Shown: positions 1,101 to 23,600, counted from the first letter of the stretch. The stretch is 64,000 nt of DNA from Methanobacteriota archaeon (GCA_020696385.1 JAEHCQ010000006.1:64001-128000); one strand, 5' to 3'. The notes: generated by a model not told the origin, from the letters alone. Made by a program: numbers and translations.

Positions 1101-3866
1101 GTGGCATCGAAGGAACTGAAGAAGGCGATGGACGATCTTCTGCGAAAGAAGAACAGGAGGATAGTGACAGGCACTGTCAGGTCTGGCCGCCGAACTGAGA
1201 TCATCACTGTTGGAAAACAGGGTAAATATATTCGTTACAGAACCCCAAAATCCGGTGATGCCAGTGATCTTGCTTTATTGCCTACTATTACATCTGCAAT
1301 AATCAATTCCAGGGGCGGAAAGATCCGTGTCAAGAAATCAGATTACAAGGAAAAGGTAAGGAGAAGGAAGATATCCACGCTTATCTGCCTAGTTCTCGAC
1401 ACATCCAGTTCCATGGTGATGGATGCCAAGATGAGAGGTATAAAGGATTCTTTGAATGGCCTTATGTTGGACATATACCAGAAGCGGGACAGGATATCTC
1501 TCGTGGTCTGTTTCGGTCGGTCGGCCGAGGTCGTACTTCCCTTCACATCCAGTGTTGAGAAAGGAAATCAATTTATAGAGCAGCTCAAGTTCGGAGGAAC
1601 AACTCCTCTTGCTGCTGGGATGCGTAGGGGGATGGAAAATCTTCTAACAAAGACCCGCATAGAGAAAGATACCAATTCTCTTCTCATAATCGTGACCGAT
1701 GGATCTGCCAATACACCTCTTGTTCCTGGCGTGGATGTTGATAATGAGGTGAAGGAGACCGCGGCAAATATCCTGAAGCATAATATCCCGGTTTTGGTCA
1801 TTGACGTGAATATCAAAGGATCGGAAATGGCCGAAGAGATCGCAAGACTATGTGATGGAAAATATTTCAAGATCGATCACTCGGAAGTTCTGGGATCTAC
1901 AACTTCGATAGATGATGTCATGAAGTTCGACAGGGTGATGGAGCATGTAACATTGGCTCTCGTGGATCCAAATATGAAAGGAATACTTTTCAAAGCACAA
2001 GACAGGAACATGGTCTCGGATGTCCTGACATATCTTGATACCCTCGCGATTGAGTTCAAGGCAGTTTCCGGTTGCCATTCCGGTTGTGATCCCGATGATC
2101 CCGAAGCTTTCTGCCACCATTGTAAATTGAAATATGTGGATCAGGAAGAACCTCCTGAGATGAATACCTCACTCAGGACATATCCGATAGTTTCCCTATC
2201 ATCCTTCGGCACAGCGGATGAGCTAATTGGCGATATATTTGTCAGGTTCCTAGCAACCCCAAGTTACCTTCACAAGGTCAATCGAGGTATCTTGTTCATC
2301 AAGGATATCGACACACTCTCAAAGGAAGTTGTGGACATTCTGGTCGAGACCTTGAAGACCAGAAATTACACACTCGAGAAAGATGGTATGTCAATGACCT
2401 TCCCGACCAAGTTTTCCATCATTGGAACATTGAGCAATGATGAAGCATCCGTGCCAAAGGAACTTGAAGGTCAAATGACCATGGTGATCGATACAGAACC
2501 CGAAAAGAATCTCGAGTACAATACCAAGTTCATACAGTACGAGAAGGAATTCGATGCAGACCCTGCTGGTTTTGAGAATAAACTGGATCGCGGTCGCAAG
2601 GAATCCATCATGGAGATAATAAAAGCGAGGAAGATGTTGCGCGGTGTCTCAACTCCCGATATATTGAACATGGCCCTTGATATTTATAGCCAGGATCTGA
2701 GCAAGGAGGATTGCTTTCCTTCCAAATTGAAAGCAATGGCGAAGGTCATGGCCGCAAAGAAGATGAAATCCGAGGTAACAGAGATCGAGGCTGTGGAAGC
2801 GATAGAGATATTGCGAAGGCAAAAGCGACTCAAGCCGGGTACGATAGAGATATCCCCCAACCTAACTCCTTTCATAGAGATCAGTGAGAGAGTTGCCGAA
2901 GCCGAGATCATTAGGGACAAGCTAATGTCCACCCTGGTCGCAAAGGATGAGATAGGTGGTGTGATGATCAGAGGCTTCAATGCCGATGCTGTAAGAACTG
3001 CATTGAGATCATTACAGGATATGTCCCTGCATTTGATGGTCCCGAAAGGCTGTAAATATGAATGCGATCCAAACCGTTCGGAGGAATTCTGTCCTGAGTG
3101 TCGCTTGAAATATCATGATGATAGATTAGAGATAGAGGAACAGCCAATGCCCGTTGTTTTCCTGCCACCTGAAGTTGGATTGAAGCAATTAAAAGGCGAG
3201 ATCTTTGTCAAGTATGTTGTCTCACCCAATTTACTTAGTAGAGCCCATCGTGGAATCGTCTTTATAGAAGATATTGACCTATTAAAACCAGATATCGCTG
3301 ATGCAATGGCGCAGGTCATGAGCACAAAGACGAATATTGTGGAGAGAGGAAGTGTTCTAATCGAAAATCCATGCAGAACACTTGTTATTGGAACCATCAG
3401 TGACCCTGATGCTGAAGTACATCCTGTTATTATCGATCACATGACAGCCATGTTAGAGGCTTCCGATCATGATAGGACAATGATCAAATTAAAATCATTG
3501 GGATATCTTGAAGAATTCGGTTCGAACCCTGAAATGTTCAGCAAACAGATATTGGCAGACATTGATAGGGCGACATCATCCGTGATCGAAGGTCAGGAAC
3601 TTTTCAATGAGGTGAGCATTCTTGATTCACAGCTTGATCTCATTGTCAGGATATGTAATGAGTTCGATGTTGAAGGAAACAGTACGGAATTCAATGTCGA
3701 GAAGGTTGCGAAGACCCTTGCGGCCATAAGAGGTTCCAAGAAAGTTGATGATATGGACATCATCAATGCTTCCAAGATGGTCTTACCATTGGCCGCATTG
3801 ACAAGTCAGGAAATGCAGGATTATATTTCAAGATCTTTGAAGGATATGGTGCTACAATATGCATGA
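1101..3866 (+). CDS. ChlD/BchD-like vWA-domain protein with two C-terminal degenerate ChlI-type AAA+ modules
   Basis: vWA MIDAS motif LDTSSSM, GGTTPL and VTDG; two Cys-rich C-x3-C-DP-x5-C-x2-C inserts typical of ChlI; Walker B-like GILFIKDID and GIVFIEDID; no Walker A in either module. Confidence 0.8.
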   Translation: MASKELKKAMDDLLRKKNRRIVTGTVRSGRRTEIITVGKQGKYIRYRTPKSGDASDLALLPTITSAIINSRGGKIRVKKSDYKEKVRRRKISTLICLVLDTSSSMVMDAKMRGIKDSLNGLMLDIYQKRDRISLVVCFGRSAEVVLPFTSSVEKGNQFIEQLKFGGTTPLAAGMRRGMENLLTKTRIEKDTNSLLIIVTDGSANTPLVPGVDVDNEVKETAANILKHNIPVLVIDVNIKGSEMAEEIARLCDGKYFKIDHSEVLGSTTSIDDVMKFDRVMEHVTLALVDPNMKGILFKAQDRNMVSDVLTYLDTLAIEFKAVSGCHSGCDPDDPEAFCHHCKLKYVDQEEPPEMNTSLRTYPIVSLSSFGTADELIGDIFVRFLATPSYLHKVNRGILFIKDIDTLSKEVVDILVETLKTRNYTLEKDGMSMTFPTKFSIIGTLSNDEASVPKELEGQMTMVIDTEPEKNLEYNTKFIQYEKEFDADPAGFENKLDRGRKESIMEIIKARKMLRGVSTPDILNMALDIYSQDLSKEDCFPSKLKAMAKVMAAKKMKSEVTEIEAVEAIEILRRQKRLKPGTIEISPNLTPFIEISERVAEAEIIRDKLMSTLVAKDEIGGVMIRGFNADAVRTALRSLQDMSLHLMVPKGCKYECDPNRSEEFCPECRLKYHDDRLEIEEQPMPVVFLPPEVGLKQLKGEIFVKYVVSPNLLSRAHRGIVFIEDIDLLKPDIADAMAQVMSTKTNIVERGSVLIENPCRTLVIGTISDPDAEVHPVIIDHMTAMLEASDHDRTMIKLKSLGYLEEFGSNPEMFSKQILADIDRATSSVIEGQELFNEVSILDSQLDLIVRICNEFDVEGNSTEFNVEKVAKTLAAIRGSKKVDDMDIINASKMVLPLAALTSQEMQDYISRSLKDMVLQYA

Positions 3867-4956
3867 TGATAATGATAATGCAGAAAATATTGTACTCGTT
3901 AATAATGATAATGTCGATCCTAATCTTACTAATATCGTTCCAGATGACCATGATGATAACTCTAACCTTGACTTTGAGGACCTGTCCCGATTCAATAAGA
4001 AAAAAGACAAACTTTTCTTTCCGTTCACTGGCATAGTTGGTCAACAGTCTATGAAGAAAGGCCTTATTCTTGTCTCCGCCAATCCGCGCATCAGTTCTTT
4101 ATTGATAATCGGGGAAAATGGTACGGGGAAAGTCACAGCATCCATGGGATTACAGGCTTTTCTTCCCGATCTCGAGGTGTCTGCTCAGTGCACATCCAAT
4201 TGCGATCCTCGAAACAGTCTGTTCTTATGTACCACATGCAAAGATAGTGGGGTCACGAATGATGATAATATCATCCAAATACCAACTCCCTTCATGGTAT
4301 TGCCTGTTGGTACATCTCATGAGAGGATATTCGGTTCTTTCGAGAAGGACGGAAGCTTTGTTCCTGGTCTGATATCAATCGCAAATAGAGGTTATATCCT
4401 AATGGAAAGGGTCAATCTCCATGATGCCGATATGATAAGATCACTATTGGATATTCGTGACAAAGGAGTATGTGAATGCAAATGTGAAAAGGGTGAGTTT
4501 ACATTCACTCACCCTGCTCAGTTCACATTGATCGCAACTCTGAACCCGTCCGAGGGTGAACTGGATGAAGATATCTTGAAACGATTCCAATTAGTGGTTC
4601 ACACAAGAAGTCTGAAGGATATCGAGGAAAGGATAGAGATCGTGCGGAGGGTGGAGAGCTTCAAGGAGGATCCTCAGGAATTCCTGGATAAGAGCAAGAG
4701 GGAGCTCGACGGACTTAGGGCCGTGATAGAGAACTCAAGGCGATTATTGAAGAGGGCGGACATACCTTCGAAATCCATGGACGCGATAATCAATATCCTG
4801 AAGAGCCATGATACTGATAATCCAGCCATGCGGGACGCCATGGTCGAATCCACCAAGGCCAACACGGTCATCAATGACAGCACATGGGCATCTATCGAGG
4901 ATATTGCAGAGATAGTTGATATGGTCATGGCCTATCATATGAAGAAAGAAGCTTGA
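3859..4956 (+). CDS. Magnesium/cobalt chelatase ChlI-like AAA+ subunit
   Basis: FPFTGIVGQQSMK, Walker A GENGTGKVT, NCDP..C..C insert, PGLISIANRGY, HPAQFTLIATLNPSEGEL; overlaps the upstream gene by 8 bp. Confidence 0.85.
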   Translation: MHDDNDNAENIVLVNNDNVDPNLTNIVPDDHDDNSNLDFEDLSRFNKKKDKLFFPFTGIVGQQSMKKGLILVSANPRISSLLIIGENGTGKVTASMGLQAFLPDLEVSAQCTSNCDPRNSLFLCTTCKDSGVTNDDNIIQIPTPFMVLPVGTSHERIFGSFEKDGSFVPGLISIANRGYILMERVNLHDADMIRSLLDIRDKGVCECKCEKGEFTFTHPAQFTLIATLNPSEGELDEDILKRFQLVVHTRSLKDIEERIEIVRRVESFKEDPQEFLDKSKRELDGLRAVIENSRRLLKRADIPSKSMDAIINILKSHDTDNPAMRDAMVESTKANTVINDSTWASIEDIAEIVDMVMAYHMKKEA

Positions 4957-5383: not shown

Positions 5384-5451
5384 ACAATTCTATGAATGAC
5401 GCCGAAATCATTTTATAACGTTCAATCTATTTTATGTATGAAAGTGAACAT

Positions 5452-6372
5452 ATGGCATTAACCGAAGAATCCAAGGATCTGATCATATTAATTCTCATAG
5501 TGTCAATGGTCCTTGTCCTGGTGGTTGAACTAATGTACATGCGCTCAAAGAAGAAACAGAAGAAAAGTAAGTATGAAGAGAACAAGGCAGACGAGGCCTA
5601 TAATAAGATACATACTGCAGATCGTATCATATCGACCATGAGATCCCAGGGTGTGGATGTTCACGAGGCAGAACTTTTGCTCAAAGAAGCAAGGCGTTAT
5701 GAATCATCGAGAAACTTTGATTCTGCAATTGAAAGGGCCGAGAGATCGAAGATAATTTTGAGAAATGCCAAGAGAGACCATGATATGAAAGAAGCCACCA
5801 ATCAGAATGGTATAGGATCTGAACAAATTAACACAGTATCTGAGATAACTTCAAATAATATCCCTGCAAATGCTCCTCTTCCCTCACCTATTGAAGAGGT
5901 GAGGTCTGCAAAGCGACCCAAGAATTTCCTGCAGGCGAAGTTCTTGCTGACCACGGTCAAAGATCTTATGGAAAATGAAGAAAATCAGGGGATCGAAGAA
6001 GCAAGGCAGATGTTCGAAGATGCAAAAGATGAATTTGCCAAAGAAAATTACACAAAGGCTCTATCACTTGCATTGAAGACAGAAAAGATGCTAAAAGTAG
6101 GTGGCTTTGATCACATTGCGGAAACCTCACAGCCGCATTCTGAAGAACATACGGATGATGATCCACACAACCATTATGATGAGGAAGAACCTAAGATCAT
6201 CGATCTCGAAGGGGCCTCTTGTGATAGTTGTGGAACTGATGCTGATATATCCGATGCTTTCTGTAGAAAATGCGGTGATAAGCTGGAGTTCATCATTATC
6301 TGTCCAAGTTGTGATGCAGAAGTACAGCCTGATGATGTCTTCTGCAGGAAATGTGGACAGAAGCTTGGTTGA
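5452..6372 (+). CDS. Membrane-anchored helical-repeat protein with C-terminal double zinc ribbon
   Basis: N-terminal TM helix followed by a basic patch; GVDVHEAELLLKEA-type repeats; four CxxC pairs (CDSC, CRKC, CPSC, CRKC). Confidence 0.75.
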   Translation: MALTEESKDLIILILIVSMVLVLVVELMYMRSKKKQKKSKYEENKADEAYNKIHTADRIISTMRSQGVDVHEAELLLKEARRYESSRNFDSAIERAERSKIILRNAKRDHDMKEATNQNGIGSEQINTVSEITSNNIPANAPLPSPIEEVRSAKRPKNFLQAKFLLTTVKDLMENEENQGIEEARQMFEDAKDEFAKENYTKALSLALKTEKMLKVGGFDHIAETSQPHSEEHTDDDPHNHYDEEEPKIIDLEGASCDSCGTDADISDAFCRKCGDKLEFIIICPSCDAEVQPDDVFCRKCGQKLG

Positions 6373-6505: not shown

Positions 6506-7543
6506 TCAAAGGACCTTTCCATTCTTTATGATATCTTTTGTGGTTCCATCCATGTATGTTACCGCCATACTTGGTTTATTGAACAGGAAATCACGGTGTG
6601 TCTTTGAATTATTGGTCCCGTTGTTCATGTCCATATTGTTACCAAAGGCAATATGGGCTGTTTCCCCTGCCTTTTCATCCTCCAGAAGGTTTCCGACCAG
6701 TCTAGCATTGGGATTGAGCCCTATGCCAAGTTCTCCGATCGTTGAGGCCATCTCATCTATCGTGGTCAGTTCCCATAGATGTTTCACCATCTCCTTATCC
6801 TCACATTCCATGTCTGTCAATATACCATTTTTGATGGTCAATGTAAGTGGAACATCCAACATTCCAATGTCTCCGATGCTCCCATCCACAACTACTTTTC
6901 CACTACCTTTGGTCTCTGTTGGTGCACACCAGATCTCCCCTGCTGGGAGGTTTCCAAAGCTTTTCTTGTCAATAATGACGTCCGTGGAGAAGCACCGATC
7001 CTGAATATCAAGTATAAGATTAGTTCCTAATTCAGTGGTTATGTGAACCTCTTTTGCCTTATTGAACTTACTTTTCAAATCCATGGCATCCTTAACTATC
7101 TGTTCATAATCCACATTCATTGGCCCCTTGTACATCATTTCCTTTGTTATACCAGGGGCATGAGCCACTCTGACATCATAGGCGATCTCATCATAAAGCA
7201 ACTCAACACGAAATGGTGTTTCCTTCGCATCGCCATGGAAGGCATTGACAACCACATTATAATCTTTGAAAATTCCTTTTAACTGTTCCGGAAGTTTTTC
7301 CAGAGGTCTTTGGTGTTGAGAAATGGAATATAGATCGGTCTTCAGACCACCTAATCTCTTGGCACCACTGATGAAGGCATGACCGATATCCTGTTTTTCT
7401 TGATCTGTGACCACAAGAATATTCTGACCCTGGTCAAATGAAAGCACATTCTTCAGAGCTTTCTCCGCACCTTCGACCATCTTATTATAATTGGAGCATC
7501 TCTTGAAATCATCTTTGTTTGCTAATTCCATTATTTCAGCCAT
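6506..7543 (-). CDS. M29-family (thermophilic leucyl-type) aminopeptidase
   Basis: GNLPAGEIWCAP, IGELGIGLNP, EDEKAGETAHIAFGNN and HRD motifs. Confidence 0.88.
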   Translation of the reverse strand: MAEIMELANKDDFKRCSNYNKMVEGAEKALKNVLSFDQGQNILVVTDQEKQDIGHAFISGAKRLGGLKTDLYSISQHQRPLEKLPEQLKGIFKDYNVVVNAFHGDAKETPFRVELLYDEIAYDVRVAHAPGITKEMMYKGPMNVDYEQIVKDAMDLKSKFNKAKEVHITTELGTNLILDIQDRCFSTDVIIDKKSFGNLPAGEIWCAPTETKGSGKVVVDGSIGDIGMLDVPLTLTIKNGILTDMECEDKEMVKHLWELTTIDEMASTIGELGIGLNPNARLVGNLLEDEKAGETAHIAFGNNMDMNNGTNNSKTHRDFLFNKPSMAVTYMDGTTKDIIKNGKVL

Positions 7544-7672: not shown

Positions 7673-10600
7673 TCAGTTTTCCTTTAGCTTAGCAAGGTTC
7701 TTCTCGAAGAGTTCCTCAGATATCTTTCCATCCTCGAATGCCTGCCTCAGTCGGAGAACACGCTCGTCCTCTTCAGGTGCTTCGAGAGTGGAGTCGATCG
7801 CTTCCTCTGTTTCAATGTCAGGTTCCACTTCATCTGTAATTTCAGGTTCTGCATTGATATCTGATTCAGTCTCAATATTTTCGGTTTCCATCTCGGATGA
7901 TATATCTTCGGATATATCAACATCTGAATCCTCTGGAATCTCATCATCAATGATTGAATCGCCTATCTCTTCGGGAGACATTTCCTCCTCAGGTATAGGT
8001 GGTTCTTCCATGTTGTCGATGTCTTCTGGAACTTCATCATCAATGATAGAGTCACCTATCTCTTCGGGGGACATCCCCTCCTCCGGTATAGGTGGTTCTT
8101 CCATGCCGTCGATGTCCTGTGGGATCTCATCTTCTGGCAGATATTCATCATCTGTCATATCGCCATCCAGTTCATCTCCGCCATGTAACTCATCATCTTC
8201 GATGCTTGTAACCTGGGCTGGTGTGTATTCCTCCGATTCAGGAGTATCTTTCCAGATCATCATGGCAATGAACATGCCGACCACAAGTCCAACGATCAAA
8301 AGAACGATCATCATTCCGATCGCTCCATAGTTGGTGGACTCCTCTGGTGTCAGTTCAACTGTGTGTCTCAATTCGACAATGTTACCTGCTTTGTCCTCTA
8401 CCTCTATTACAATGGTATTGAGTCCATAGCTCAGGAACACGGTCCTTTCGAATTCGGATATTCCTCTTGTAGAATCCACAGTCACCTGCTTTCCATTGAC
8501 CAGAACTCCTCCGATCTTCAGTTCTTCTTCATCTATCTCAGCACTGAAGGTGAAGTTGTCAGTATGTACCTCTGTTGGGAGTTCATCAAGGGTGATCATA
8601 GGCATTGTTTTGTCAAGAGTGATGTTCAACCAGTCATCAATGGTATTGCCTGCCATGTCCATGAATAATAGGTGTAATACATTCTCACCTTCCAATAGGT
8701 CCACAACCGTCGAGAAGGATCCATCGCTGTTCACAGTGATCTCTTTTCCATTTATGGTCATGTATCCTGATTCATCAACTTCTCCAGTTATTGTGATCTT
8801 GTCCTTATTGGTCCTTGAGCCTTCCTCGCTAACGAATCCCTCAAAGACTGGCATATTCAGATCCAACACGATTGTCCTTCTGACCTCTGCTTTGTTTCCT
8901 GCAAGGTCTATGGCAGATATAGTGATCATGTTCTTGCCATCTTCGAGGATGACATATGCGGAGAATTCTCCATTTGCCACATTTACATGCTCAACCTCGA
9001 CACCAAATATGTCCAAGGTGGCATCTGTCTCTATGAGACCTGAGATCTCATAATGATCATCTGTTGTGTATTCTGTGTTTGTTTCTGGGGTCTTAACATT
9101 CAGGGATGGCAATCCTGAATCTATCAAGAAGGTCCATGATTCCGTGAAGGTGTTGCCAGCCTGATCCATTATGGATGCTTCGACACTGTGGATACCATCA
9201 TCCATTTCAGATGGTGAAGAATAACTGATAGTACCTAGTGGGAAGCCTTGTACTGGCGATGGTGCTGTTGAATCTAAATCATCGACAAAAGGTACATTGG
9301 TGGAGGCCTGTGGTGTTACATCGACTCCATCAACTATCATCTTTGGACTATCCGGTACCAATTCTCCGAAATCATCCTTGAAATTTGCTGTTATTATTGG
9401 ATTGCTGTCGCGCATCACTTCCCCATCTCCTGGACCAAAGCCACTGCTTGTAGGTGCTATGGTATCGTACCTGAGATCGATTGGAAGTAGCATTGTGAAT
9501 GGAGCTTCACCAGGTCCAATGTACAAAGCACCTTGTAATGTTACTCCTTCCTTTGCACTTGGAAGATCATATCCCAGATCCAATTTTGATGTTGTGTATG
9601 CGGATAATGGTGTATCCGATTTCCACTGATCTGGGTTGTCTGGTGTAAGATCCACTCCTTCACCCTCAACACCAAATCCAAGTCCCTGCACATTTGTTAT
9701 ATCTATATCAAAGTGAGCTGGTATTGTTTTCAGAGCGAATCCATATATTATGATTATATAGTTTCCATCTGGAGGTCCTATGAGTTTCACCTGTTCATCT
9801 GCATCGAAATCCGCACCTATCGCAAAGCCCTCCTCTCCTTCAGCCTTTCCGTCTCCATTTTCATCATAGAAGACTCCAAGATCCAGGTCGGGGGCATTAT
9901 CATGACCGTATATGTGCACATCGAATATTAGGCAGTCTTTCAGGGTAACTTCTATTGTTGTATTACCTGAAGCCAGCTGATCCTCGAAGGTATCGTAGTT
10001 GCTCCAGTCTGGGTCATCCTCCCATACCTCCAAATCTTTGTAGCTGACTGGTGCTGATGGTCCTGCTGCTACACCACCGAAGTGTCCGCCGAGATCTATA
10101 TTGGAAACTCCACTTACACTTGCTGTACCCGCCAGTTCATTGGTGACTATGCTTATTTTATCAGAGTCTAGTGAGTAGGTTCCGACCCTTCCCTTAATTG
10201 GCTCAAGGTCTGAAGTACCATTCATGTGTACATTGTGTAGAGCGATGACATTCAGTCCGGCTCCTATATCTGGAGCACTGTATTCAAGTGGCCCGCCACT
10301 TGAAGTGAAGAAGGTCGCGGTCTCTGTACTACCACCATTTAATTGTAGTCCATGTGGTCCGTATCTATCTCCTGTGAAGGTATCTCCTGACTCTGGATTT
10401 ACTATCGTGAGTGCTCCAAAGGCAAATGCATCGATATCTGTTTGGCCTTTCCACCATTCTGCATTTATGAGCAGCTTGGTGTTGGAATCTGTGAAAGTTC
10501 CCTGGTCTGGGATGTCTACATAGTAGAATCTCCAGTCACCAGCCTTTCCTCCAGCTCCATCATATCCTGAGAGCATCATTGCCGGGTCGAAGAGTCTGTT

Positions 10601-13600
10601 CGTGTCATAGTATGAGTAGGTGACTTCCACATCTGCTCCATCTTGCGGCGCTGAAAGGAAATCTAATTGTCCAACTATTGGGTCGAAGACATATCTTCCA
10701 TAGCTGTAATCGATCTCAAAGAAATCCCCCGATTTCAGACCTGTGTAATTATAGTATGCTACTACTCTGTCCCCAGGTGCCATGACCCAGTTGTTAAGAG
10801 TTATGTCTCCAGTAACTGTATCTATTTTGTAATTAAGAACCCCATCAGTATCTGACTTTACCAATTTGAAGACACCGCTGGTATTCTCGTAGTAGAATGT
10901 ATTTGGTGCTGAATTTCCTATGGCATTCAAGTTATCATAGAGTACGGAGAACGAATCCTGGCCAGCACTGGCAGAATCAACCACTACCTCATTCTTTACT
11001 TCATTGAAGGTGTTCAGTTTTATCTTTCCTTCTATAGTTCCAGAATAATCGTAGTATGAATGAACAATCTCTCCGGCTCCAAGGGTCCAGCCATTAAGGG
11101 TTACCAAACCTGTATTGTAATTGATATTATAATTAGGTGATCCCGCGCTGGCACTCTCAATCATCGTGGTCCATACACCTGCATTTTGAAGATACAGAGT
11201 ATTGCCGGTGGTTGTCGATATTCCTTTATTTACCAGATTGAATTCGCTTTCTCCTCCTACGGCTGTAATGCTGATCTCATCCTTGACTGGTATCTGAGCC
11301 ATAAAGTATTGAAGCCCATCTGTCAAAGCATTTCCATTCCTGTATACCTGGTATCCAAGACTATCAGTGATCGATTTTGCACTATTATACAAGTTGACAT
11401 TGGCTATCGTTAGCTCTGTGACACCAACAGCGTATGTTCCATAGTTGGCTGTCACGACCATACCCCAATCAAGGGTAGTTCCGAACAAAATATCACCTGT
11501 CTGAAGGTTCAATGTATAATCGATTCCCTCGATCAGCAGTTCACCGTCAATGAACACAGTATAAGTTCCCGGTCCGATCTCGTATCCTGCTTCGAACGTA
11601 TCAATGTTGGCAGTTGTGGTGCTATTATCTTCTGCGATCAAGATCTCCTGATTTAAATACTCTCTACTATTATTCAATATTATCTCTCTGGATACTGTAT
11701 TGAACTTGGACAGAGCAATTCCATCCTCCTTCGTCACAAATGAATCCGGTATGATATTGGTATGTGAAAGCGTGAATTCAGTCTTTTTCGTTATGTTTGT
11801 GTATTCGACTCCGTATTCGTACTCTACGCACACTGAAGCTCCTTCAGGGATTCCACTTTCAAGCTCATAAGCTGCGGATGTATTGAAGGTGATGACTCCA
11901 GTATCATAATTTACATCATACCAGGATTCATTAGTGATTGGCAAAGTTCCATTGTAATAATTTGTGGAATTATAGCTGTACCAAGCGTATAGATAATCAC
12001 CAATCTCGAAGTCCCAGTCGAGAGTGAAAATACCCGTATTGTAGTCGAATGAAGCCCAGCCATTGTCCCATGTATCATCAACAGAGCCGTTGAGTGTTCC
12101 AGGGGCTCCAAGGTAATACCAGGCGCCATATGTGTACACATAAAATACTTCAGTACCAGGAACGATATTTTCATGGTCAAGTAGTACCGAAGTGAACCCT
12201 CCTGTTGCAGAGTTCTCAAGGACTGCTTCGTTGGTGATATTATATGTGTTATGATAAGTGTATGATACGTTATCCAAAGCAACACTTGTTACGTTATTCA
12301 AACTTCCATAAACCTCATAGTATGGGACATGATCTAGTGTGAACTCCGTCTGGTTGAATGTTGCATTGGAAGTAGACAAATGCGTCTCATTTGATATTGT
12401 GTAGTTCAAGGATGTGAACGAAAATGAATCAACACCGACAAAGTTCTCAACAGCATTCATTGCTGGCTTATCACCGAATTCGAAATTCGGGTTGTTTGCT
12501 GCAACATTGATGACCATTGGAATAACAGTGGTCTTTCCAACATTTGTTGTTGATGTTATTGCTCCCTCGTATGAACCGACACCTTCTGCTATTGCCTTTG
12601 CACTGTCAAGTGTGGCTGTGAAGGTTCCAGATGCTCCTGCTGGGATCGTCAATGCGCTATCTGAAAGTGTTACCCAGTCCCATGTTTGTCTTGAATAGTA
12701 CTCTGCTTTTATGAATATATCCAATTCTTCTGCGAGTGCCGCCATGTTACGGCTCCATATAGCAATTCCATCATGTATCCTGTTATTGTCGCTTTGATCA
12801 TGTACTCTACATTCCAGAACATTTCCACCTATGAATGCTCCTGACATTCTGTTCCTCTCTGCAAATAAGACTGGTGGATTATCGTATGGTCCTGCATTCA
12901 GATCACCATTCAGCTTTCCATCGCCATTCTCATCGGTCCAGTCATATAGTTCCAGCCAATAATCTGATGAAGTCGAGTATTGTGTTATCTTGACCAGATC
13001 TGTGCTTGTCCAGAGGCTGTTATCGACTTCGCTTATAAGTTCTCCATCTGGTGTGTAGAATCCAGTCTCATTCAATATGGTCCATCCATGGCCATAATCT
13101 GCATCTCTTGTTATGGTAGCGATCCCTTCTCCTGCCTTGAGTATCTCTCCTGCCATCAGATCGACATCGATACTGTTTGATAGGTCATGATTGTCAATGG
13201 TGAAGGTCTGTTCCAGATTCTCAGGGAGTGTATTCTCACTCACTAATTTGGCGAAGGCATCATACCTTTCTCCACCATAATCGCCAGGTACCCATGATGT
13301 TGGTGTTATAACTGAACCACCCATGTTTGATGCGATCTTGGCAGATTCCATAACGTCAACAAATCCAGCTCCCTGTGAGAGCACATCATAATCGATATCC
13401 TCTGCTCCAGACATTAGAATTGAACGTGCTGTTTCTATGTCCAGTGGATTGGTATGTGTGTCATCATATGCATCAGCTATTACTGCAATAGCAGCTGCCA
13501 GGTTTGAACTTGTCAATGCCTGACCAGACCAAATATTGACCGTGTCTGTGTAAACCGCATTTGGGCCTCTGTCATATTCTGCCCAGAGAGGTTCTGATAC

Positions 13601-16600
13601 GAATCCGAAGTAAGCTCCAGAAGCAACAACATCTGGCTTTGGATTTCCCATCATTGTCGGTCCCCTTCCGGAGACTGTGATTATATCACCATATGATGGA
13701 TTGGGTCCGCTATCCTGCTCTTCGACTATCCTGTAGAAGAAGTCAGTTGATAAACCAGCTGTGATAACTCCTGGTGCTGATCCAGGTGAGGAAACAGTTC
13801 CATATCCAGAGCCTGCACCACCTGATGTGGCTGTGAATATTGTCTTTCCATCTCCATATTCTGTGGCTAACCAGTCAACATATCTTGATGTGAAATCTCC
13901 ACCTGCTTCATAAGCACTTGTGGCCAGGGAACTACTGTATATATCTGCTTCATCGCCAGTTCCTGGAATTCCATCATAACCTTCTATAGCAAAGATCATA
14001 CCATCGTACATTGGATCAGTTATGCCTATTATTTTTGCATCTGGTGAAATTCCCAGGCAGGGCTTGACATTTATGTCGTTCCTGTGGTTTAATAATCCTT
14101 GCCCGGCTACTGCCGAGGCTCGAGATGTTCCTGCTGTCAGATCAAGTGCGTACTCACCATACATGGCAACCATCTCACCGTTCAAAGGAATGACATTATC
14201 AACACCGCTCCTTTCGGCAAGTCTTTCTGAATATGGTATTGGTAATCCATCATATTCATAGCTGATCGTAATGGCATTTCCAGTCTGGTTACTCGAGAAT
14301 GTTATGACAACCTCTTCAGAGTTCTGATAGTCAACTGTGTAATTACCGGACTCATCAACTAATAGTCCATCGATGTGAACCTCCCAGGAATTGTTCATAA
14401 CTCCAACATTGCCAAGCACGGCAGTTGTTCCTGTATCAAGGGTTAATGCTTCATCAGTAACAACACTTGCCTGACTGATATAGTATATCATACCTCCAGA
14501 TCTGTCTGCCAGACCATTTCCATCCATGTCTCTCCAGGATATCTCGTCACCCATCACACAAGCCTTTTCATCTGTGAAGTCTTGGTCATAATCCAGATCC
14601 ACATAGACAGTATCATAAACACTATCTATAGTGGAATCCACAAGAAGTACCTTGGAGTAATTGAATATTTGGCCAGAATAATTGTTCACGTATGTAGCCA
14701 GGTTCTCATCCATCAGAGTTCCAAGCCTGTAAACACCACTTACACTATCGATTCCAGTAACTGTGTATGCTGTCTTGATCACTGTTGGGTTAATAGTACC
14801 AATAGATTCAATATCTGCATCCACGAAGTCATTTTGATAATGTGCTTTCACGTATCTGATTTCATACTTAGTAACTGTTCCGACATTTCCATCGTCACCT
14901 GGTGCTGCCCAAGTAAGGTCTACTGTACCATCCCGACTTGTTGCGGTAGCAGTAAGGCTGATAGCATCTGGTGCTACATCATCGACCCTTGCAGTTCCAT
15001 TTGGTGAGTTTGATACGAGAGGGTTGTTCATACTCATCTCATCCTTTGCTATTAATGCAAAGAAATATTTGACGCCCTCATCAAAACCTGCGCCACTGAA
15101 ATTAAGGTATACATGGTCGCCACCTACAGGAACAAAGCCAAAGGTTGCCTCAAAGTTGGACTGGACGATAGACGCTCTCTGAGACACTGGTGTTGAACCC
15201 CATGTCGCATCTGTTACTGGGGCTGTATCATATCTGATCTCATAATTTTTAACCGAGCCTACCATTCCATCATCTCCTGGTGATATCCAGTCGAGCATTA
15301 TTTGTCCATGGTTATCGCTCTGCCCTACGTTAAGAGTGGTCACTGCGGGTCCAATGATATCATTCTGGACTATTGCATTATCGCAGTTTGATACAGAGGC
15401 ATTATTATCTCCATCATCTGCCTGGATCGCAAAGTAATAATCTATTCCTGCCGGTGGAGCAGACCAAACGGCTCCATCTGTTGTTCCTATGATAAGGGAT
15501 TGGAATGAACCACCTTTAAGTGGTGCGTCAACTGAGAAGTCTCTTGAGTACGTTCCAGATACACCATAATCAGATACAGTGTCTGGAATTGTATCCCAAT
15601 TTGTTTCATCTATTGTTGATGTGTAGTATTTCACAATATATTCCTGTGCCCATCCAACCATGCCATCATCTCCTGGTGCGGTGAAATTGAGATAAACAGT
15701 TCCGTGATCTGGGCCAGTTTCGACATTAAGGTCAGTGATCTGTGCTGGCTTGATAGTGTCGCTCGCTCTTGATACTGCTGAGCCATTGGGGTTTGAAATT
15801 GCTCCCATATTACCCGCTATATCAATTGCTATTATGGAGAAATAGTAAGTTGTGCCTGATAGGGGCATCATAAGAGTGTAGTTCTCAGTACTTCCTACGG
15901 ATTTAGGGTTCCAGTTCAATGAATCTGCATAAACTGTAGCGGCCTGGAACTCTGTATCATTTGTGATGTCGCTGGTACTGTATCTCAGCTCATAGCTGTC
16001 TGTATCTGTTATTGCAGTCCACTCTAAATATACTTGAGTGGAATTAGCTCCAGGGTATGCGGTTGGATCGATTCTTGCTGGTGCTATAATATCATCTGTG
16101 ACAGCTGCATTGTCTGTATTTGATACTTCTCCTGCATTACCTGCTTCATCAACAGCAACTATAGCGAAATAATAATCAGTGCCAATATCAAGTCCTGTCA
16201 AAGTATATGTTTCGACCAGGTTTGCATCTTTTGGCATCCATGTCTGCACATACTCATCGGCTAAGTAATCAAAGCATACCCAGTTGGTGATCGGGTCTTC
16301 AGAGTATTTTATGACATAATTTGTTGCAGTTCCTACGTCTGCATCATCTCCTGTTGCTGTCCAGCTTAGGTCCACTGTGCCGTGTATAACTCCATCTGTT
16401 GCCATAAAGTCAGTGATCTGGTCTGGTGCTGTGGTGTCCTCATTGGTCATTGCATCTGGGTTGTTTGAGAAATCACCATGGTTATTTGCTTCGTCTGTTG
16501 CTACTATATTGAAAAGGTAGTTTGTGTTTGCATCTAATCCCGTAACTGTGTAACTCTCTGCACCGCCTACGGATGTTGGAATGTATCCATTTGATTCTTT

Positions 16601-17875
16601 CAGAACTATGCGCTGTGAGTCAGGAACATTATCCCATGTGAAATATATGTATGATACTTCGATCTTGTTGACGAGGATAGAGGGAGAAAAAGAGATCTCG
16701 CCAAGATCATAGTTCACTGAATAAGCTGCTCCTGGAACTTCGACACCATCTGCATAAACTACGATACTGCCGATCTTCACGCTGCCATGACTCAATTTTG
16801 TGGATAATTTGACTTCTGCAGAATCACTGCTGAATGTGAGTTCCTTGATAACAGGAACTTCAATGTCCAGTTCAGGGTTATTTGGTGTGGAATATACGGT
16901 TGCTGTTTCATTTGTGCTCACATACCAGGTATCGGTTGTTTCGCCAGTATCAAGGTATGTGCTCATAGAATTGTAGTCGAACACAATTGGCCATCCAGCA
17001 TAGGGTGAATTGAATTGATAATCTGCTGTTACGATATCTCCCAATTCCAAAGCTGGTGTGAATGCGATAATGCCAGTATCAAGATCAAGTGTGTAATCTG
17101 TACCAGAGGTGATGGCTGTACCGTTCACGTAAATCGCGAATGTTCCAGGCATTATTCCACCAGATGATAATGATGTCTCATTCTCTCCACCAACTGCTTC
17201 CAGTATGGTCTCTCCAATTGCTTTTAGAGTGGCTGGAACTCTTGCCTGTGTGCCTTGAAGATCAGGGTGACCGAAATCTATCCCGCCTTCTGGTATAGCA
17301 ACATTTGAGCCAGTGCCTATGTAACCAGCAACCCAGGCATCCTGTGCATAGTGTTGCTTAGAGTCATACAATGATGCAGGTGAATTACCATTATCATTTC
17401 CATTGGCAAACAGGTTCTTCTCTTCTGGGTTTGTCATATCTAGTGATGTGTCTGGGTAAGCATAAACTCCATACACTCCAGAAAGACCTGCAATCTCATC
17501 CAGGCTGTTCAATGGGACGTCAAGAACATGGGTCATGAGCATGTTCTCATCTCCAGTATTCTTTGTGCCAAGAAGACCTTTGTATTCATATTTAGCAAGA
17601 GCAGTAGCCAGTTGTGCAGTATCTGTTGTGGCGACTATGACCTTGGTCATGCCCTTTGTGCCTTCTTTCATGAATTCTCCCAGGGCTGGATCTATCTTGG
17701 AAGATATATCACCAGCTAGGGTAGTGTCATCTACGATCTCATCGATCAGGTTGTCTATAAGCCCGTCAGATGTGGCATCATTGGTCATAAGGTTGCCCAT
17801 TGATCCAAATGCAGATAGCACGAACAGCCAAACTATACATACGCTCAAATATTTCTTTGTCTTGGTTTCAGACAT
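7673..17875 (-). CDS. Giant (3400 aa) membrane-anchored S8 subtilase-like surface protein, probably catalytically inactive, with FN3 and Ig-like repeats
   Basis: Signal peptide; subtilase framework (GIDFGHPDL, SGRGP..GNPKPDVVASG, QGAGFVD); FN3 repeats (WTAPGDDG...YYFAI.A.D); Ig/glucodextranase-like C-terminal repeats; TM helix; acidic tail ending in a SHOCT-like LRQAFEDGKISEELFEK. Confidence 0.85.
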   Translation of the reverse strand: MSETKTKKYLSVCIVWLFVLSAFGSMGNLMTNDATSDGLIDNLIDEIVDDTTLAGDISSKIDPALGEFMKEGTKGMTKVIVATTDTAQLATALAKYEYKGLLGTKNTGDENMLMTHVLDVPLNSLDEIAGLSGVYGVYAYPDTSLDMTNPEEKNLFANGNDNGNSPASLYDSKQHYAQDAWVAGYIGTGSNVAIPEGGIDFGHPDLQGTQARVPATLKAIGETILEAVGGENETSLSSGGIMPGTFAIYVNGTAITSGTDYTLDLDTGIIAFTPALELGDIVTADYQFNSPYAGWPIVFDYNSMSTYLDTGETTDTWYVSTNETATVYSTPNNPELDIEVPVIKELTFSSDSAEVKLSTKLSHGSVKIGSIVVYADGVEVPGAAYSVNYDLGEISFSPSILVNKIEVSYIYFTWDNVPDSQRIVLKESNGYIPTSVGGAESYTVTGLDANTNYLFNIVATDEANNHGDFSNNPDAMTNEDTTAPDQITDFMATDGVIHGTVDLSWTATGDDADVGTATNYVIKYSEDPITNWVCFDYLADEYVQTWMPKDANLVETYTLTGLDIGTDYYFAIVAVDEAGNAGEVSNTDNAAVTDDIIAPARIDPTAYPGANSTQVYLEWTAITDTDSYELRYSTSDITNDTEFQAATVYADSLNWNPKSVGSTENYTLMMPLSGTTYYFSIIAIDIAGNMGAISNPNGSAVSRASDTIKPAQITDLNVETGPDHGTVYLNFTAPGDDGMVGWAQEYIVKYYTSTIDETNWDTIPDTVSDYGVSGTYSRDFSVDAPLKGGSFQSLIIGTTDGAVWSAPPAGIDYYFAIQADDGDNNASVSNCDNAIVQNDIIGPAVTTLNVGQSDNHGQIMLDWISPGDDGMVGSVKNYEIRYDTAPVTDATWGSTPVSQRASIVQSNFEATFGFVPVGGDHVYLNFSGAGFDEGVKYFFALIAKDEMSMNNPLVSNSPNGTARVDDVAPDAISLTATATSRDGTVDLTWAAPGDDGNVGTVTKYEIRYVKAHYQNDFVDADIESIGTINPTVIKTAYTVTGIDSVSGVYRLGTLMDENLATYVNNYSGQIFNYSKVLLVDSTIDSVYDTVYVDLDYDQDFTDEKACVMGDEISWRDMDGNGLADRSGGMIYYISQASVVTDEALTLDTGTTAVLGNVGVMNNSWEVHIDGLLVDESGNYTVDYQNSEEVVITFSSNQTGNAITISYEYDGLPIPYSERLAERSGVDNVIPLNGEMVAMYGEYALDLTAGTSRASAVAGQGLLNHRNDINVKPCLGISPDAKIIGITDPMYDGMIFAIEGYDGIPGTGDEADIYSSSLATSAYEAGGDFTSRYVDWLATEYGDGKTIFTATSGGAGSGYGTVSSPGSAPGVITAGLSTDFFYRIVEEQDSGPNPSYGDIITVSGRGPTMMGNPKPDVVASGAYFGFVSEPLWAEYDRGPNAVYTDTVNIWSGQALTSSNLAAAIAVIADAYDDTHTNPLDIETARSILMSGAEDIDYDVLSQGAGFVDVMESAKIASNMGGSVITPTSWVPGDYGGERYDAFAKLVSENTLPENLEQTFTIDNHDLSNSIDVDLMAGEILKAGEGIATITRDADYGHGWTILNETGFYTPDGELISEVDNSLWTSTDLVKITQYSTSSDYWLELYDWTDENGDGKLNGDLNAGPYDNPPVLFAERNRMSGAFIGGNVLECRVHDQSDNNRIHDGIAIWSRNMAALAEELDIFIKAEYYSRQTWDWVTLSDSALTIPAGASGTFTATLDSAKAIAEGVGSYEGAITSTTNVGKTTVIPMVINVAANNPNFEFGDKPAMNAVENFVGVDSFSFTSLNYTISNETHLSTSNATFNQTEFTLDHVPYYEVYGSLNNVTSVALDNVSYTYHNTYNITNEAVLENSATGGFTSVLLDHENIVPGTEVFYVYTYGAWYYLGAPGTLNGSVDDTWDNGWASFDYNTGIFTLDWDFEIGDYLYAWYSYNSTNYYNGTLPITNESWYDVNYDTGVITFNTSAAYELESGIPEGASVCVEYEYGVEYTNITKKTEFTLSHTNIIPDSFVTKEDGIALSKFNTVSREIILNNSREYLNQEILIAEDNSTTTANIDTFEAGYEIGPGTYTVFIDGELLIEGIDYTLNLQTGDILFGTTLDWGMVVTANYGTYAVGVTELTIANVNLYNSAKSITDSLGYQVYRNGNALTDGLQYFMAQIPVKDEISITAVGGESEFNLVNKGISTTTGNTLYLQNAGVWTTMIESASAGSPNYNINYNTGLVTLNGWTLGAGEIVHSYYDYSGTIEGKIKLNTFNEVKNEVVVDSASAGQDSFSVLYDNLNAIGNSAPNTFYYENTSGVFKLVKSDTDGVLNYKIDTVTGDITLNNWVMAPGDRVVAYYNYTGLKSGDFFEIDYSYGRYVFDPIVGQLDFLSAPQDGADVEVTYSYYDTNRLFDPAMMLSGYDGAGGKAGDWRFYYVDIPDQGTFTDSNTKLLINAEWWKGQTDIDAFAFGALTIVNPESGDTFTGDRYGPHGLQLNGGSTETATFFTSSGGPLEYSAPDIGAGLNVIALHNVHMNGTSDLEPIKGRVGTYSLDSDKISIVTNELAGTASVSGVSNIDLGGHFGGVAAGPSAPVSYKDLEVWEDDPDWSNYDTFEDQLASGNTTIEVTLKDCLIFDVHIYGHDNAPDLDLGVFYDENGDGKAEGEEGFAIGADFDADEQVKLIGPPDGNYIIIIYGFALKTIPAHFDIDITNVQGLGFGVEGEGVDLTPDNPDQWKSDTPLSAYTTSKLDLGYDLPSAKEGVTLQGALYIGPGEAPFTMLLPIDLRYDTIAPTSSGFGPGDGEVMRDSNPIITANFKDDFGELVPDSPKMIVDGVDVTPQASTNVPFVDDLDSTAPSPVQGFPLGTISYSSPSEMDDGIHSVEASIMDQAGNTFTESWTFLIDSGLPSLNVKTPETNTEYTTDDHYEISGLIETDATLDIFGVEVEHVNVANGEFSAYVILEDGKNMITISAIDLAGNKAEVRRTIVLDLNMPVFEGFVSEEGSRTNKDKITITGEVDESGYMTINGKEITVNSDGSFSTVVDLLEGENVLHLLFMDMAGNTIDDWLNITLDKTMPMITLDELPTEVHTDNFTFSAEIDEEELKIGGVLVNGKQVTVDSTRGISEFERTVFLSYGLNTIVIEVEDKAGNIVELRHTVELTPEESTNYGAIGMMIVLLIVGLVVGMFIAMMIWKDTPESEEYTPAQVTSIEDDELHGGDELDGDMTDDEYLPEDEIPQDIDGMEEPPIPEEGMSPEEIGDSIIDDEVPEDIDNMEEPPIPEEEMSPEEIGDSIIDDEIPEDSDVDISEDISSEMETENIETESDINAEPEITDEVEPDIETEEAIDSTLEAPEEDERVLRLRQAFEDGKISEELFEKNLAKLKEN
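7932..8131. repeat. 93-bp (31-aa) tandem duplication in the acidic tail of the giant protein
   Basis: Units start at 7932 and 8025 and encode ID(G/N)MEEPPIPEE(G/E)MSPEEIGDSIIDDE(V/I)PED twice, plus a partial third unit. Confidence 0.9.
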
Positions 17876-20631: not shown

Positions 20632-23600
20632 ATGGATAATGATAAAGGAACTAAACAGTTTGTGAGCATGGCAGTTGCTATTGTTATAGCACTAAGCATG
20701 ATTCTATCCGCTACTGCACTGTTGATCAACATTCCAGTTAATGTAACTGGTGCTGACGTCAGTGAAGAGCAGGTAGTCGCACAACCACCAAGCACAGAAA
20801 TATGGTTGAAGAATGCGAGATTCAATACAGCAATGGGAGACCCGGCAATGCCTTCTACCCTTGGAATCAACGCATACCCAAACCATGTCAAGGGTACATA
20901 CATAGTGCAGAAGAGTGGAGCAGTAACCGAGGAATGGAAAGCTGATATCGCCAGGGCAGGCGGAGAAATACTCAGCTACATCCCGGACAATGCTTTACTT
21001 GTACGTATGGACAACAGTGCAAAAGGTAGAGTTGAGGCGGTAAATGGCAATCAATGGACTGGTATATACCAGCCAGCCTACAAGATCAGCCCAGAGCTGG
21101 ACGGTAGGCATGGTGAAGTGACCGTTAACATTGATATTTTCGATGGAGGCAACAATGGTCCGGCAGTAAGATTACTGAAGGACAACGGAGGTACAATAAT
21201 ATCTGTTGTTAGGAACGATAATATCAACAAGATCGTTGCAAAGTTCGATGCTTCCCTGATGGGCGATCTCGCCTCATTCCCAGATGTTAGCTGGATGAGC
21301 GAGGGCGTACAGAATAAGATCGTCAATGACGGATCAGTTCTCATCGCTCAGTCTGGTGTTCCACCAACATCAGCTATAATCCATGGCTATGGAATACAGG
21401 GCCAGGGGCAGGTAGTTGCAATTGGTGATTCCGGTCTGGCAGAAGGATTGGGAGCTACTGATGTAGACCACGACAACTTCAATGGCGGCGGATATGACGT
21501 CGGCTCTGGAGACAAGGTTTTGGACTACTACGTACCAGGAGATGCAGATGGTGCACTTGGTGACGAGGCTGGAGCTTCATACCACGGTAGCCACGTTGCA
21601 GGTACAGTATTGGGTGACGGAGCACCATATGGCGCATACACTACAGCATCATATGATGGTCACGCATACATGGCTCAGGTTATTTTCCAGGATATGGGTA
21701 GAGAAGATGATCCCGCTACACCAGTAGTAAATGAAGTGGAGTTCATCTACTCACCAACTGATTCCTACAATGATATGTTCTTTATCACAGAGGAAGCAGG
21801 CGCCAAGTTCCACACGAACAGCTGGGGCGGCGGATTTGGATACATGAGCGATGCACAGCAAGAGGATCTGTACATGTGGGACAGCCAGGATTACACCATC
21901 CTTTTCGCAGCAGGTAACGATGGCGCTGCAGACACAGTTGGTTCACAGGCAGAGTTGAAGAACGGATTTGCCGTTGCTTCACTTTCTGCAACAGGAACTT
22001 CACTGTCTTCTTTCAGTAGCAGGGGTCCAGCCGTTGACGGTAGGATAAAACCTGACATAGCATTCTGTGGAGAATCCATCATGTCTGTAGACGGCGGTGG
22101 AGGATTCCAGTCCATGCAGGGAACAAGTATGGCGACACCTGGTGTTGCCGGTAACCTTGCATTGGTTCGCCAGTACTACACAGAGGGATGGTACCCAACT
22201 GGTGCTGAGATCTCAGCAAACGGTTTCAATCCATCCGCTGCATTGATAAAGGCCACTGTCTTGAATGGTGGTAATGATATCAGCAGCTCAAGACCTGACT
22301 TTTCTCAGGGCTGGGGCAGATTGAACTTGGATGACAGTTTGTATTTCAGTGGAGATGCAATGAATGTGTTCGCACATGATAACTTAGAGGGAATGGTCAC
22401 AGGAGATTACATTGATTTCCCAATAGGTGTCGATTCTGGTGCATTGGACTTCACAGCAACTGTTGTATGGACCGATTACCCAGGTAATCCAACTGCAGCC
22501 AAGATGTTAGTTAACGATCTCGGCCTGCTTGTTATGGGACCCGGTGGAACACAATGGAGAGGTAACAACCATGCAGGTGGTTACTCTCAGGCCACTGGAA
22601 CTTCCAATAACTATGACAGTCTCAACAATGTAGAGGATGTTAGGATAAACAACCCAGCAGCCGGTACATATGTCGTAAGGGTATCTGCAGAGAACATCGC
22701 AATGGGACCACAGAACTTCGCAGTCGTGATCTCCGGTGCACTCACTGATGGATACGGAATGGTCTTCATGGACAGAACAGTTTATGATGATGCAGATTCC
22801 ATAACCGTGACAGTTGAGGACTCAAACAACCCAGCACCAACCGTTGATGTTACTTTGACAACAGCAATAACTGGTGACTCAGAGACAATAACACTTGGAT
22901 GGACAGCTATTCAGTCTGGTGTCTACAATGTAGGTGCCCCGATAGCAACCAATGTCGCTTCCGTTGCAGCAGATGGTGTATTGCAGGTCGCTCATGGTGA
23001 CACAATAACAGCATCATATGATGATGGAGACCCAAGTTTCACTGCGACAACCGTTGCATGGGCTGATTTCCACGGACCTTTGATAAGCAATGTGTTCGTA
23101 ACTGGCATCACAGGTACAACTGGTGTTCCAACATGGGACACGGATGAGAATGCTGACAGCCTTGTGACCTACAGGACTGCAGAGGTAATATCACCTCCAA
23201 TACCTGCAGGATCTTGGCTGACTTCATCTGTCGGTGACCTATCACTTATGCACAGTGTTCCATGTAAGGGCCTTGCAGAAGATACCAAGTACGAGTTCTA
23301 TGTCGAGTCAACTGACTGGCGTGGAAGGACAACCATGGACGACAATGGTGGACGTTTCTACACATTCAGGACAACAAGCGCAGCCTCTGGTGGTGCTTTG
23401 ATCCTTCTTGTGGACGATGACATCGGTAGTGTATCTGATATAGATGGTGCACCATTCGAATTGGACTGGATGAACAACCTGGACAACTACGGATGGACCT
23501 ACACACACTGGGACATGAACATCCTTGGATCTCCAACAACAGCAGATCTTAATCAGGCTCCAATGATCATCTGGACCGTGTCTGAGGGATACCCACAGAT

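Follow-up and report, generated by a model that had tools for sequence, protein, structure and literature searches.

We investigated a pair of adjacent genes, A1 and A2 (locus A), in a 64,000-nt stretch of DNA from a Methanobacteriota archaeon (GCA_020696385.1, JAEHCQ010000006.1:64001-128000, hereafter the window; the source genome, coded G000, is 94.5% complete). The two genes encode one domain with a metal ion-dependent adhesion site (MIDAS) and three degenerate AAA+ modules of the ChlI type. Our favoured reading, to which we assign a probability of roughly 0.55, is that a ChlI motor, anchored at the membrane and independent of CobN, remodels a protein client, and that A1 and A2 serve it as a ChlD-like adaptor with pseudo-ATPase modules and a MIDAS. 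The original prediction, made from the sequence of the window, had taken the pair for a self-contained, ATPase-impaired ring. That idea lost ground because two intact ChlI ATPases are encoded 1.7 kb past the window end, within a second set of genes (locus B, B1 to B4), and are clustered with the pair in other lineages; the pair is therefore more likely a ChlD-like adaptor than a stand-alone dead ring. Our argument starts from what could be observed directly, namely domain anatomy, motif states, conservation, the absence of CobN and gene clustering.

A1 (positions 1101-3866; this and all other locus A features lie on the + strand of the window) begins with a GTG start codon and encodes 921 aa, in which a ChlD-type linker and vWA/MIDAS domain precede two tandem pseudo-AAA+ modules. 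The first 92 residues (1101-1376) form a basic segment that is the counterpart of the ChlD segment preceding the vWA domain (TIGR02442 match from position 403), and many of its residues are invariant among 42 homologues, including T36, G41, Y43, P49, D56, P61, D81, K85, and R88. The vWA domain (1377-1877; PF00092, E 3e-11, residues 95-258) has an intact MIDAS composed of DTSSS (1398-1412, residues 100-104), GGTTP (1593-1607, residues 165-169), and TDG (1695-1703, residues 199-201). Residues 23-259 correspond to the C-terminal linker and vWA part of TIGR02442 (positions 403-641, E 3e-51) and also to the C-terminal part of BchD/ChlD (E 1e-35). No hydrophobic stretch is visible in the sequence of the A1 N-terminus, and the vWA domain is therefore predicted to be cytoplasmic.

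The remainder of A1 consists of two ChlI-like modules, A1a (1911-2870) and A1b (2871-3863), which match TIGR02442 positions 17-308 over residues ~284-570 (E 3e-30) and ~612-897 (E 2e-48), respectively. To read their motif states, we aligned all five ChlI-like modules of G000 (A1a, A1b, A2, B3, and B4) and located the motifs from their correspondence with B4, the intact paralogue, together with general knowledge of AAA+ motifs. Neither A1 module has a Walker A, a Walker B, the sensor-1 Asn, or the Arg finger: the residues at the Walker A position are AQDRNMVS and GFNADAVR, and those at Walker B are LFIKD and VFIED. A2 (3859-4956), whose reading frame overlaps that of A1 by 8 nt (ATGCATGA), is a 365-aa ChlI-like protein with a variable D/N-rich extension of ~50 residues at its N-terminus; residues 54-364 correspond to ChlI (E 2.9e-55). 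It carries the P-loop GENGTGKV (4111-4134) and a degenerate Walker B, ILMER (4396-4410), and retains the sensor-1 Asn and the Arg-finger position. Judged by these motifs, A2 is predicted to be incapable of ATP hydrolysis and probably still binds nucleotide and supplies an Arg finger. All five ChlI-like modules share a C-x3-C-x8-C-x2-C (Cys4) insert, found at 2073-2123 in A1a, 3051-3101 in A1b, and 4189-4239 in A2. Hidden Markov model (HMM) domain mapping and the module alignment thus confirmed, at the same coordinates, the vWA-AAA-AAA protein and coupled ChlI-like gene of the original prediction, along with its intact MIDAS, its degenerate ATPase motifs, and its Cys-rich insert in each A1 module.

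This anatomy is conserved. The vWA-first architecture is present in 21 of the 22 species genomes of the uncultured order to which G000 belongs (full-length in 14 of them and truncated by a contig end in the other 7), and the single genome without an A1 match, G405, is 83% complete. Misassembly, which the original prediction had allowed for, is therefore ruled out. A database search returned 55 vWA-first relatives, of which 47 reach 800 aa or more and 8 are shorter (548-643 aa) and have one pseudo-module. Across all 47 full-length homologues, down to 27% identity, the vWA-first order is kept, the MIDAS is intact, and Walker A is missing from both modules; the Cys4 insert is retained in 47 of 47 (A1a) and 46 of 47 (A1b). 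A2 keeps the P-loop Lys in all 16 distinct orthologues and a GK[ST] motif in 9 of them, and none of the 12 of these orthologues whose Walker B segment was found by pattern has a D-E Walker B. Compared with the congener G406, the ratio of nonsynonymous to synonymous substitution rates (dN/dS) is 0.039 for A1 (0.035-0.045 for each domain) and 0.093 for A2, and these ratios are approximate because dS is ~1.0-1.3. We also considered decay of the pair after loss of CobN, which is ruled out by the low dN/dS and the conservation of the motifs.

To place the modules relative to each other, we built a maximum-likelihood tree of 34 ChlI-type modules, taken from one genome of each of the order's four families together with 14 modules of other Thermoplasmata as the outgroup. 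Over the four families, every one of the five modules forms an orthologous clade of its own (support 89/75 for A1b and 98-100 for the other four). A1a and A1b are sister clades (support 100/100), which points to a tandem duplication. B3 and B4 are also sisters (93/87) and sit on short branches, and the A modules sit on long ones; the tree is rooted at its midpoint only, and for this reason we claim no direction of descent. A2 lies directly 3' of A1 in 14 of the 15 examined loci that extend past the A1 end. The exception is G402, in which the genes separating A1 and A2 do not belong to the secreted-protein family described below.

A search for the large subunit of class I chelatases, CobN/ChlH (PF02514), gave no match in G000 and none in the order's 22 genomes, of which 7 are at least 90% complete. 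The class sample served as a positive control: of its 151 genomes, 18 gave a CobN match in the same search, and every one of these belongs to a family with canonical ChlI/ChlD, where CobN often adjoins those genes. In a metagenome scan with the A1 profile (80 loci), CobN was present in the locus for 16 of 29 canonical AAA-first loci and for none of the 9 vWA-first loci, the 41 loci with a vWA-only open reading frame, or the 1 unclassified locus. The lack of a large subunit, noted in the original prediction for the window, thus extends to the genome and the order, and the pair does not belong to a known family that always occurs with CobN/ChlH. Scores also fall under the curated NCBIfam cut-offs: each of the pair's three modules is recognised by TIGR02030 and TIGR02442 (E 3e-30 to 3e-65), and full-length A1 matches TIGR02442 at E 7.8e-129, with bit scores for A1 of 431 versus 779.45 (TIGR02442) and 263.7 versus 499.55 (BchD-ChlD), and for A2 of 187.8 versus 466.95 (BchI-ChlI). 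Three criteria were tested (domain order, presence of CobN, and family cut-offs), and on each of them the system falls outside the class I chelatases.

Searching G000 for ChlI gave six matches: the three modules of the pair, one weak match (E 3e-8), and two very strong ones (E 1e-120) that sit 1.7-3.8 kb past the window end. The latter belong to locus B, whose four genes lie on one strand ~62 kb downstream of A1/A2 (L007 3692-10104, equal to G000:C47:129692-136104, 1.7-8.1 kb past the window end). B3 and B4 occupy G000:C47:129.7-133.8 kb (L007 3692-7847) on the minus strand. B4 (359 aa) is a free-standing intact ChlI, and B3 (1024 aa) combines zinc ribbons, a region with 40% Asp/Glu, four transmembrane (TM) helices (~348-483), a repetitive coiled coil of ~200 aa, and an intact ChlI module with GQKGTGKS and LYVDE. 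In the five-module alignment, Walker A, Walker B, sensor 1, and the Arg finger are all intact in both proteins. B4 matches cyanobacterial ChlI (8osf) at E 1.3e-97 and BchI (1g8p) at E 5e-87, and is by sequence a genuine ChlI-type ATPase; in Pfam, the top families are Mg_chelatase, AAA_5, and AAA_lid_2, and the MoxR family PF07726 matches B4 weakly (E 0.029). An assembly of all five modules would thus hold two active modules, one that probably binds nucleotide, and two that are dead.

The remaining locus B genes encode surface proteins, both predicted to span the membrane once, with immunoglobulin-like (Ig-like) domains outside the cell and a conserved tail in the cytoplasm. Each has a signal peptide and a C-terminal TM helix. 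B1 (494 aa) carries an Ig-like ectodomain and a basic tail; B2 (232 aa) carries a single Ig-like domain, and in its tail the juxtamembrane residues R218, N222, and A225 are present in all six compared sequences, distant loci included. The structure model of B1 (predicted local distance difference test, pLDDT, 84.6; predicted template modelling score, pTM, 0.65) shows a chain of beta-sandwich domains followed by a long C-terminal helix, and that of B2 (pLDDT 73.8) an N-terminal helix, a single beta-sandwich, and a C-terminal helix. Structure searches returned only generic matches, to Ig-like, pilin-like, hydin-type, and integrin-leg structures (for B2, the best Foldseek E is 4e-4 with a TM-score of 0.26 and the best VIA-align Z is 8.8; for B1, TMq is at most 0.25). 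In the ESM Atlas, the B1 look-alikes stay below 0.9 and are archaeal NEW3/FixG_C Ig-like proteins, and the nearest cluster of B2 is unnamed. Pfam contains no family for B2 and gives a weak Cep192_D3 hint for B1 (E 0.01); the B2 family is small, with 126 representatives at E <=1e-3 among 1.84 billion. All 7 of the order's high-quality genomes carry the strong ChlI pair B3/B4, and likewise B1 and B2 with it, and all five ChlI-like modules are found across the order.

The two gene sets are joined in several lineages. G404 carries one same-strand cluster A1-A2-B1-B2-B3-B4; G403 has A1, A2, and B1-B3 in one same-strand cluster with a B4-type ChlI match directly past B3; and in G402 both sets lie within 25 kb on one strand. 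Among the four distant vWA-first loci of the metagenome scan (32-35% identity), three carry B genes, and the contig of the fourth stops 1.4 kb past A2. Specifically, L090 reads A1-A2-737aa-1068aa-B1-B2-B3 and onwards on the same strand, L089 reads A1-A2-727aa-B1, and in L130 A1 and A2 are followed by two genes for DUF835+TPR proteins (13539-16588, + strand) and then by convergent B4-B3-B2-B1. Joint clusters of A and B are thus present in five lineages, made up of two families of the order and three distant metagenome lineages. The flanks hold no conserved gene beyond these six; NikR, RadA, CorA, EF-2, and ribosomal genes differ between lineages.

We propose the following mechanism, in which the physical assembly of A and B proteins, the membrane topology, and the client are what we infer. 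B3 and B4 would form a hydrolysing ring held at the membrane, with B3 as the tether through its zinc ribbons, four TM helices, and coiled coil. A1 and A2, contributing three pseudo-modules and one MIDAS, would dock on this ring as ChlD does on ChlI, and the MIDAS domain of A1 would be presented to a protein client at the membrane and grip it. The hydrolysis of ATP would then drive protein assembly or remodelling, not metal insertion into a tetrapyrrole. The likeliest clients would be the B1/B2 complex or proteins handled by B1/B2; candidates include the tails of B1 and B2, the acidic part of B3, and the secreted proteins that B1/B2 may handle. A stoichiometry such as a tier of two A1+A2 units on a ring of three B3+B4 units is speculation. 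The proposed use of the vWA domain resembles that in MoxR/vWA machines, where a vWA finger sits in the ring pore and the MIDAS on the client (bioRxiv 10.64898/2026.10.09.757910).

In a bolder version, which we find rather doubtful and put forward tentatively, the six genes would form a trans-membrane mechanochemical device: the ChlI motor, acting via the MIDAS of A1, would pull on the cytoplasmic tails of B1/B2 and thereby drive the surface anchoring, assembly, or release of large secreted proteins from inside. Such a device might amount to an 'inside-out', integrin-like or secretion-like use of chelatase parts in a protein-degrading archaeon. It draws support from the recurrence of B1/B2-type pairs beside a family of secreted proteins, both in L089 and L090 and in paralogous clusters of the order (L063 433-3992, L065 2-3681, L066 134-3855, L090 7608-13196, and L089 5608-7788). 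These secreted proteins (372-1068 aa) are mutually homologous, with BLAST E-values of 1e-5 to 1e-10 between the ChlI-linked distant clusters and the paralogous clusters of the order, and share the C-terminal motif V.W/F..D/A-I/V-P...G.I/L.Y/F.L/V..H/Q-A. Pfam gives no match for the proteins of this family and of the paralogous clusters. In G000, several homologues are encoded on C11 at ~426-461 kb.

How does this system relate to those already known? The nearest by sequence are ChlI/ChlD (BchI/BchD) and the family TIGR02442 ('putative cobaltochelatase'), which have the same ChlI-type AAA+ and ChlD-type linker plus vWA/MIDAS and give the best HMM matches for every part. They also show the same division of labour, an active ChlI with a partner that combines a degenerate AAA module with a vWA domain, and canonical archaeal ChlD-like proteins carry the Cys4 insert as well. 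Unlike ChlD (AAA, linker, vWA), A1 has the reverse order with the vWA domain first, and its pseudo-AAA module is duplicated. In addition, the system here has a third, separate pseudo-module (A2), and one of its active ChlI modules shares a polypeptide with zinc ribbons, four TM helices, and a coiled coil; its cluster partners are Ig-like surface proteins, it lacks detectable CobN/ChlH, and it scores under the curated cut-offs. To our knowledge, ChlI/ChlD motors are known only as Mg- or Co-chelatase engines, always with CobN/ChlH. A further parallel is Midasin/Rea1 (Mdn1), in which concatenated AAA+ modules, some of them inactive, are combined with a MIDAS that grips protein substrates. In Midasin, six modules and the MIDAS sit on one giant eukaryotic polypeptide of dynein-like lineage that acts in ribosome assembly, whereas the modules here are spread over four proteins of ChlI lineage, and the likeness is an analogy only.

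By analogy, the system would work most like the AAA+/vWA remodellers. MoxR-type systems (CobST, NorQD, and CbbQO) likewise encode a helix-2-insert-clade AAA+ with a MIDAS vWA partner, and there the AAA+ ring and the vWA protein together remodel a protein client (bioRxiv 10.64898/2026.10.09.757910). In contrast to these systems, the ATPases here are of the ChlI type and not of the MoxR/COG0714 type, the adaptor contains three pseudo-AAA modules, and the motor is predicted to be tethered to the membrane. The nearest described archaeal context is the arCOG01314 surface/secretion neighbourhood, in which AAA+ and vWA proteins occur with membrane, Ig-like, and S-layer-like proteins, specifically a MoxR/GvpN ATPase, a secreted Ig-vWA protein, and the flavodoxin-like membrane protein arCOG01314 (Makarova et al. 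2015, PMC5898192). Both contexts include Ig-like membrane proteins, whereas here neither a signal nor a TM segment is seen in the vWA protein A1, and the ATPases belong to the ChlI type. Our literature search found no paper whose title or abstract opening describes this architecture, and the main text of the papers on this order that were searched makes no mention of chelatase, vWA, or AAA.

Several observations weigh against the adaptor reading, and some of them would suit two separate systems that are neighbours by chance in some genomes, with B3/B4 serving B1/B2 and A1/A2 serving an unrelated cytoplasmic client with another ATPase. The loci are 62 kb apart in G000 and unlinked in family f54 (beyond the 10-kb flanks in L085-L087 and on two contigs in G421), so that clustering is confined to a minority of lineages; and in G405 B3/B4 were found, whereas A1, A2, B1, and B2 were not found with the queries used. 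The sole vWA domain is in A1, and B3/B4 could work without one. The generic Ig-like folds of B1/B2 provide no clue to function, and Glu229 of the B2 tail, a candidate MIDAS ligand, is weakened by its lack of conservation in L090. We nevertheless consider two separate systems unlikely: chance adjacency is hard to reconcile with recurrence in different gene orders and orientations (G404, L090 on the same strand with inserts, and convergent L130), the A and B sets have the same narrow taxonomic range, and G000 has no other ChlI-type ATPase, five of its six matches being these modules and the sixth being the weak one. A second alternative keeps the idea of an ATPase-dead 3+3 ring of A1/A2 that is independent of locus B and acts as a passive metal-binding or MIDAS scaffold. 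The two genes are adjacent and overlapping and, outside G402, follow each other directly, three modules per pair would become six on dimerisation, the Cys4 inserts are conserved, and in most genomes of the order the pair does not adjoin locus B. Such a ring is quite unlikely given the joint clusters in five lineages, and A2 keeps the P-loop Lys and the Arg-finger position, as expected beside a working ATPase site. The Cys4 insert is also carried by the two active paralogues and is therefore not special to dead modules; of the roles suggested in the original prediction, the 'metal-binding scaffold' has no further support, and the vWA-dependent remodelling role fits the evidence. Moreover, known AAA+/vWA systems require an active ring (bioRxiv 10.64898/2026.10.09.757910).

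Other points against the adaptor reading concern metal insertion, and would be expected if the system were a class I tetrapyrrole chelatase after all, inserting Fe into sirohydrochlorin, or Co or Ni, via an unrecognised subunit in place of CobN/ChlH. B4 is very near true ChlI and fits a true chelatase motor equally well. Furthermore, a heme cluster on C11 (L068 7956-17682, equal to G000:C11:619956-629682) holds hemA, hemL, hemB, hemC, a cobA-hemD fusion, a CysG-N-like gene, ahbA, ahbB, and two radical-SAM genes of the AhbC/NirJ1 and AhbD/NirJ2 types; because this cluster is complete, the organism probably makes heme via the siroheme route. A CbiX-family chelatase was not found in G000, so that a need for a chelatase is conceivable, and in G404 a NikR gene lies directly upstream of A1 (L040 14320-14739, minus strand). 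Against this, CobN was found in none of the 22 genomes of the order yet readily in sister families, the chelatase-like loci are distant from the heme genes, the conserved partners are membrane and extracellular Ig-like proteins and no tetrapyrrole enzymes, and the NikR adjacency is seen in that one genome only. The heme cluster also has its own CysG-N/Met8-type protein (TIGR01470, E 6e-25); proteins of this type can be dehydrogenase and ferrochelatase in one, and we take this one to be the likely ferrochelatase. Together, these observations make a chelatase very unlikely. It is extremely improbable that the genes form a vWA-MoxR 'ternary' system for defence against viruses or for other conflicts: conflict systems that combine AAA+ and vWA modules with variable partners are known (PMC7159879), but PADLOC assigned the six proteins to no defence family (one weak generic AAA match), inheritance looks vertical over the four families with the system near-universal in the order, the flanks are housekeeping genes, and no effector domain was found in the Pfam matches.

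Further features surround the pair. A TATA-like box, TTATATATAG (1071-1080, + strand), read directly from the sequence, lies ~21-30 nt 5' of the A1 GTG and suggests a leaderless archaeal transcript. Downstream of A2, a 312-aa protein (5434-6372, + strand) has an N-terminal TM segment (9-39) and, after a charged region of helical character, a double zinc ribbon at its C-terminus (Pfam DZR/Zn_ribbon). It adjoins A2 only in two close relatives (L069 and L071); its domain grammar recalls the N-terminal part of B3, making it a possible genus-level accessory. A 3400-aa surface protein (7673-17875, minus strand; Pfam Glucodextran_B, fn3, and Big_13), with a C-terminal TM segment and a very acidic, repetitive cytoplasmic tail of ~220 aa, adjoins the pair in this genus only. 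The window also encodes an M29 aminopeptidase (6506-7543), a 1602-aa subtilase (Peptidase_S8; 20632-25440, + strand), and a protein of 1577 aa that carries a prokaryotic RING finger close to the C-terminus (26064-30797, minus strand), which fit a protein-degrading lifestyle, and a single-chain 1176-aa pyruvate:ferredoxin oxidoreductase (54040-57570, minus strand) of ordinary anaerobe metabolism. The 41 vWA-only loci of the metagenome scan (L092-L127) represent a second CobN-less family, in which the vWA gene mostly comes directly after an intact-looking ChlI-like gene (~372-388 aa). Their vWA domain is 40-45% identical to that of A1 (e.g. L093 5172-8057), and no TM segment was seen in a hydropathy scan of the L093 protein. 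In the largest group, the flanks are the housekeeping genes for MetRS and FEN1, with a 137-aa TM protein upstream.

The conservation of five ChlI-like modules and one MIDAS in a lineage without detected CobN indicates that the ChlI/ChlD motor was recruited to another job, and the membrane tether and the Ig-like surface proteins point to protein work at the cell envelope. For genome annotation, these genes should not be taken as a sign of cobalamin or chlorophyll synthesis. As a natural heteromeric AAA+ system with fixed active and dead modules, it would also be useful for understanding how pseudo-ATPase subunits shape ring mechanics.

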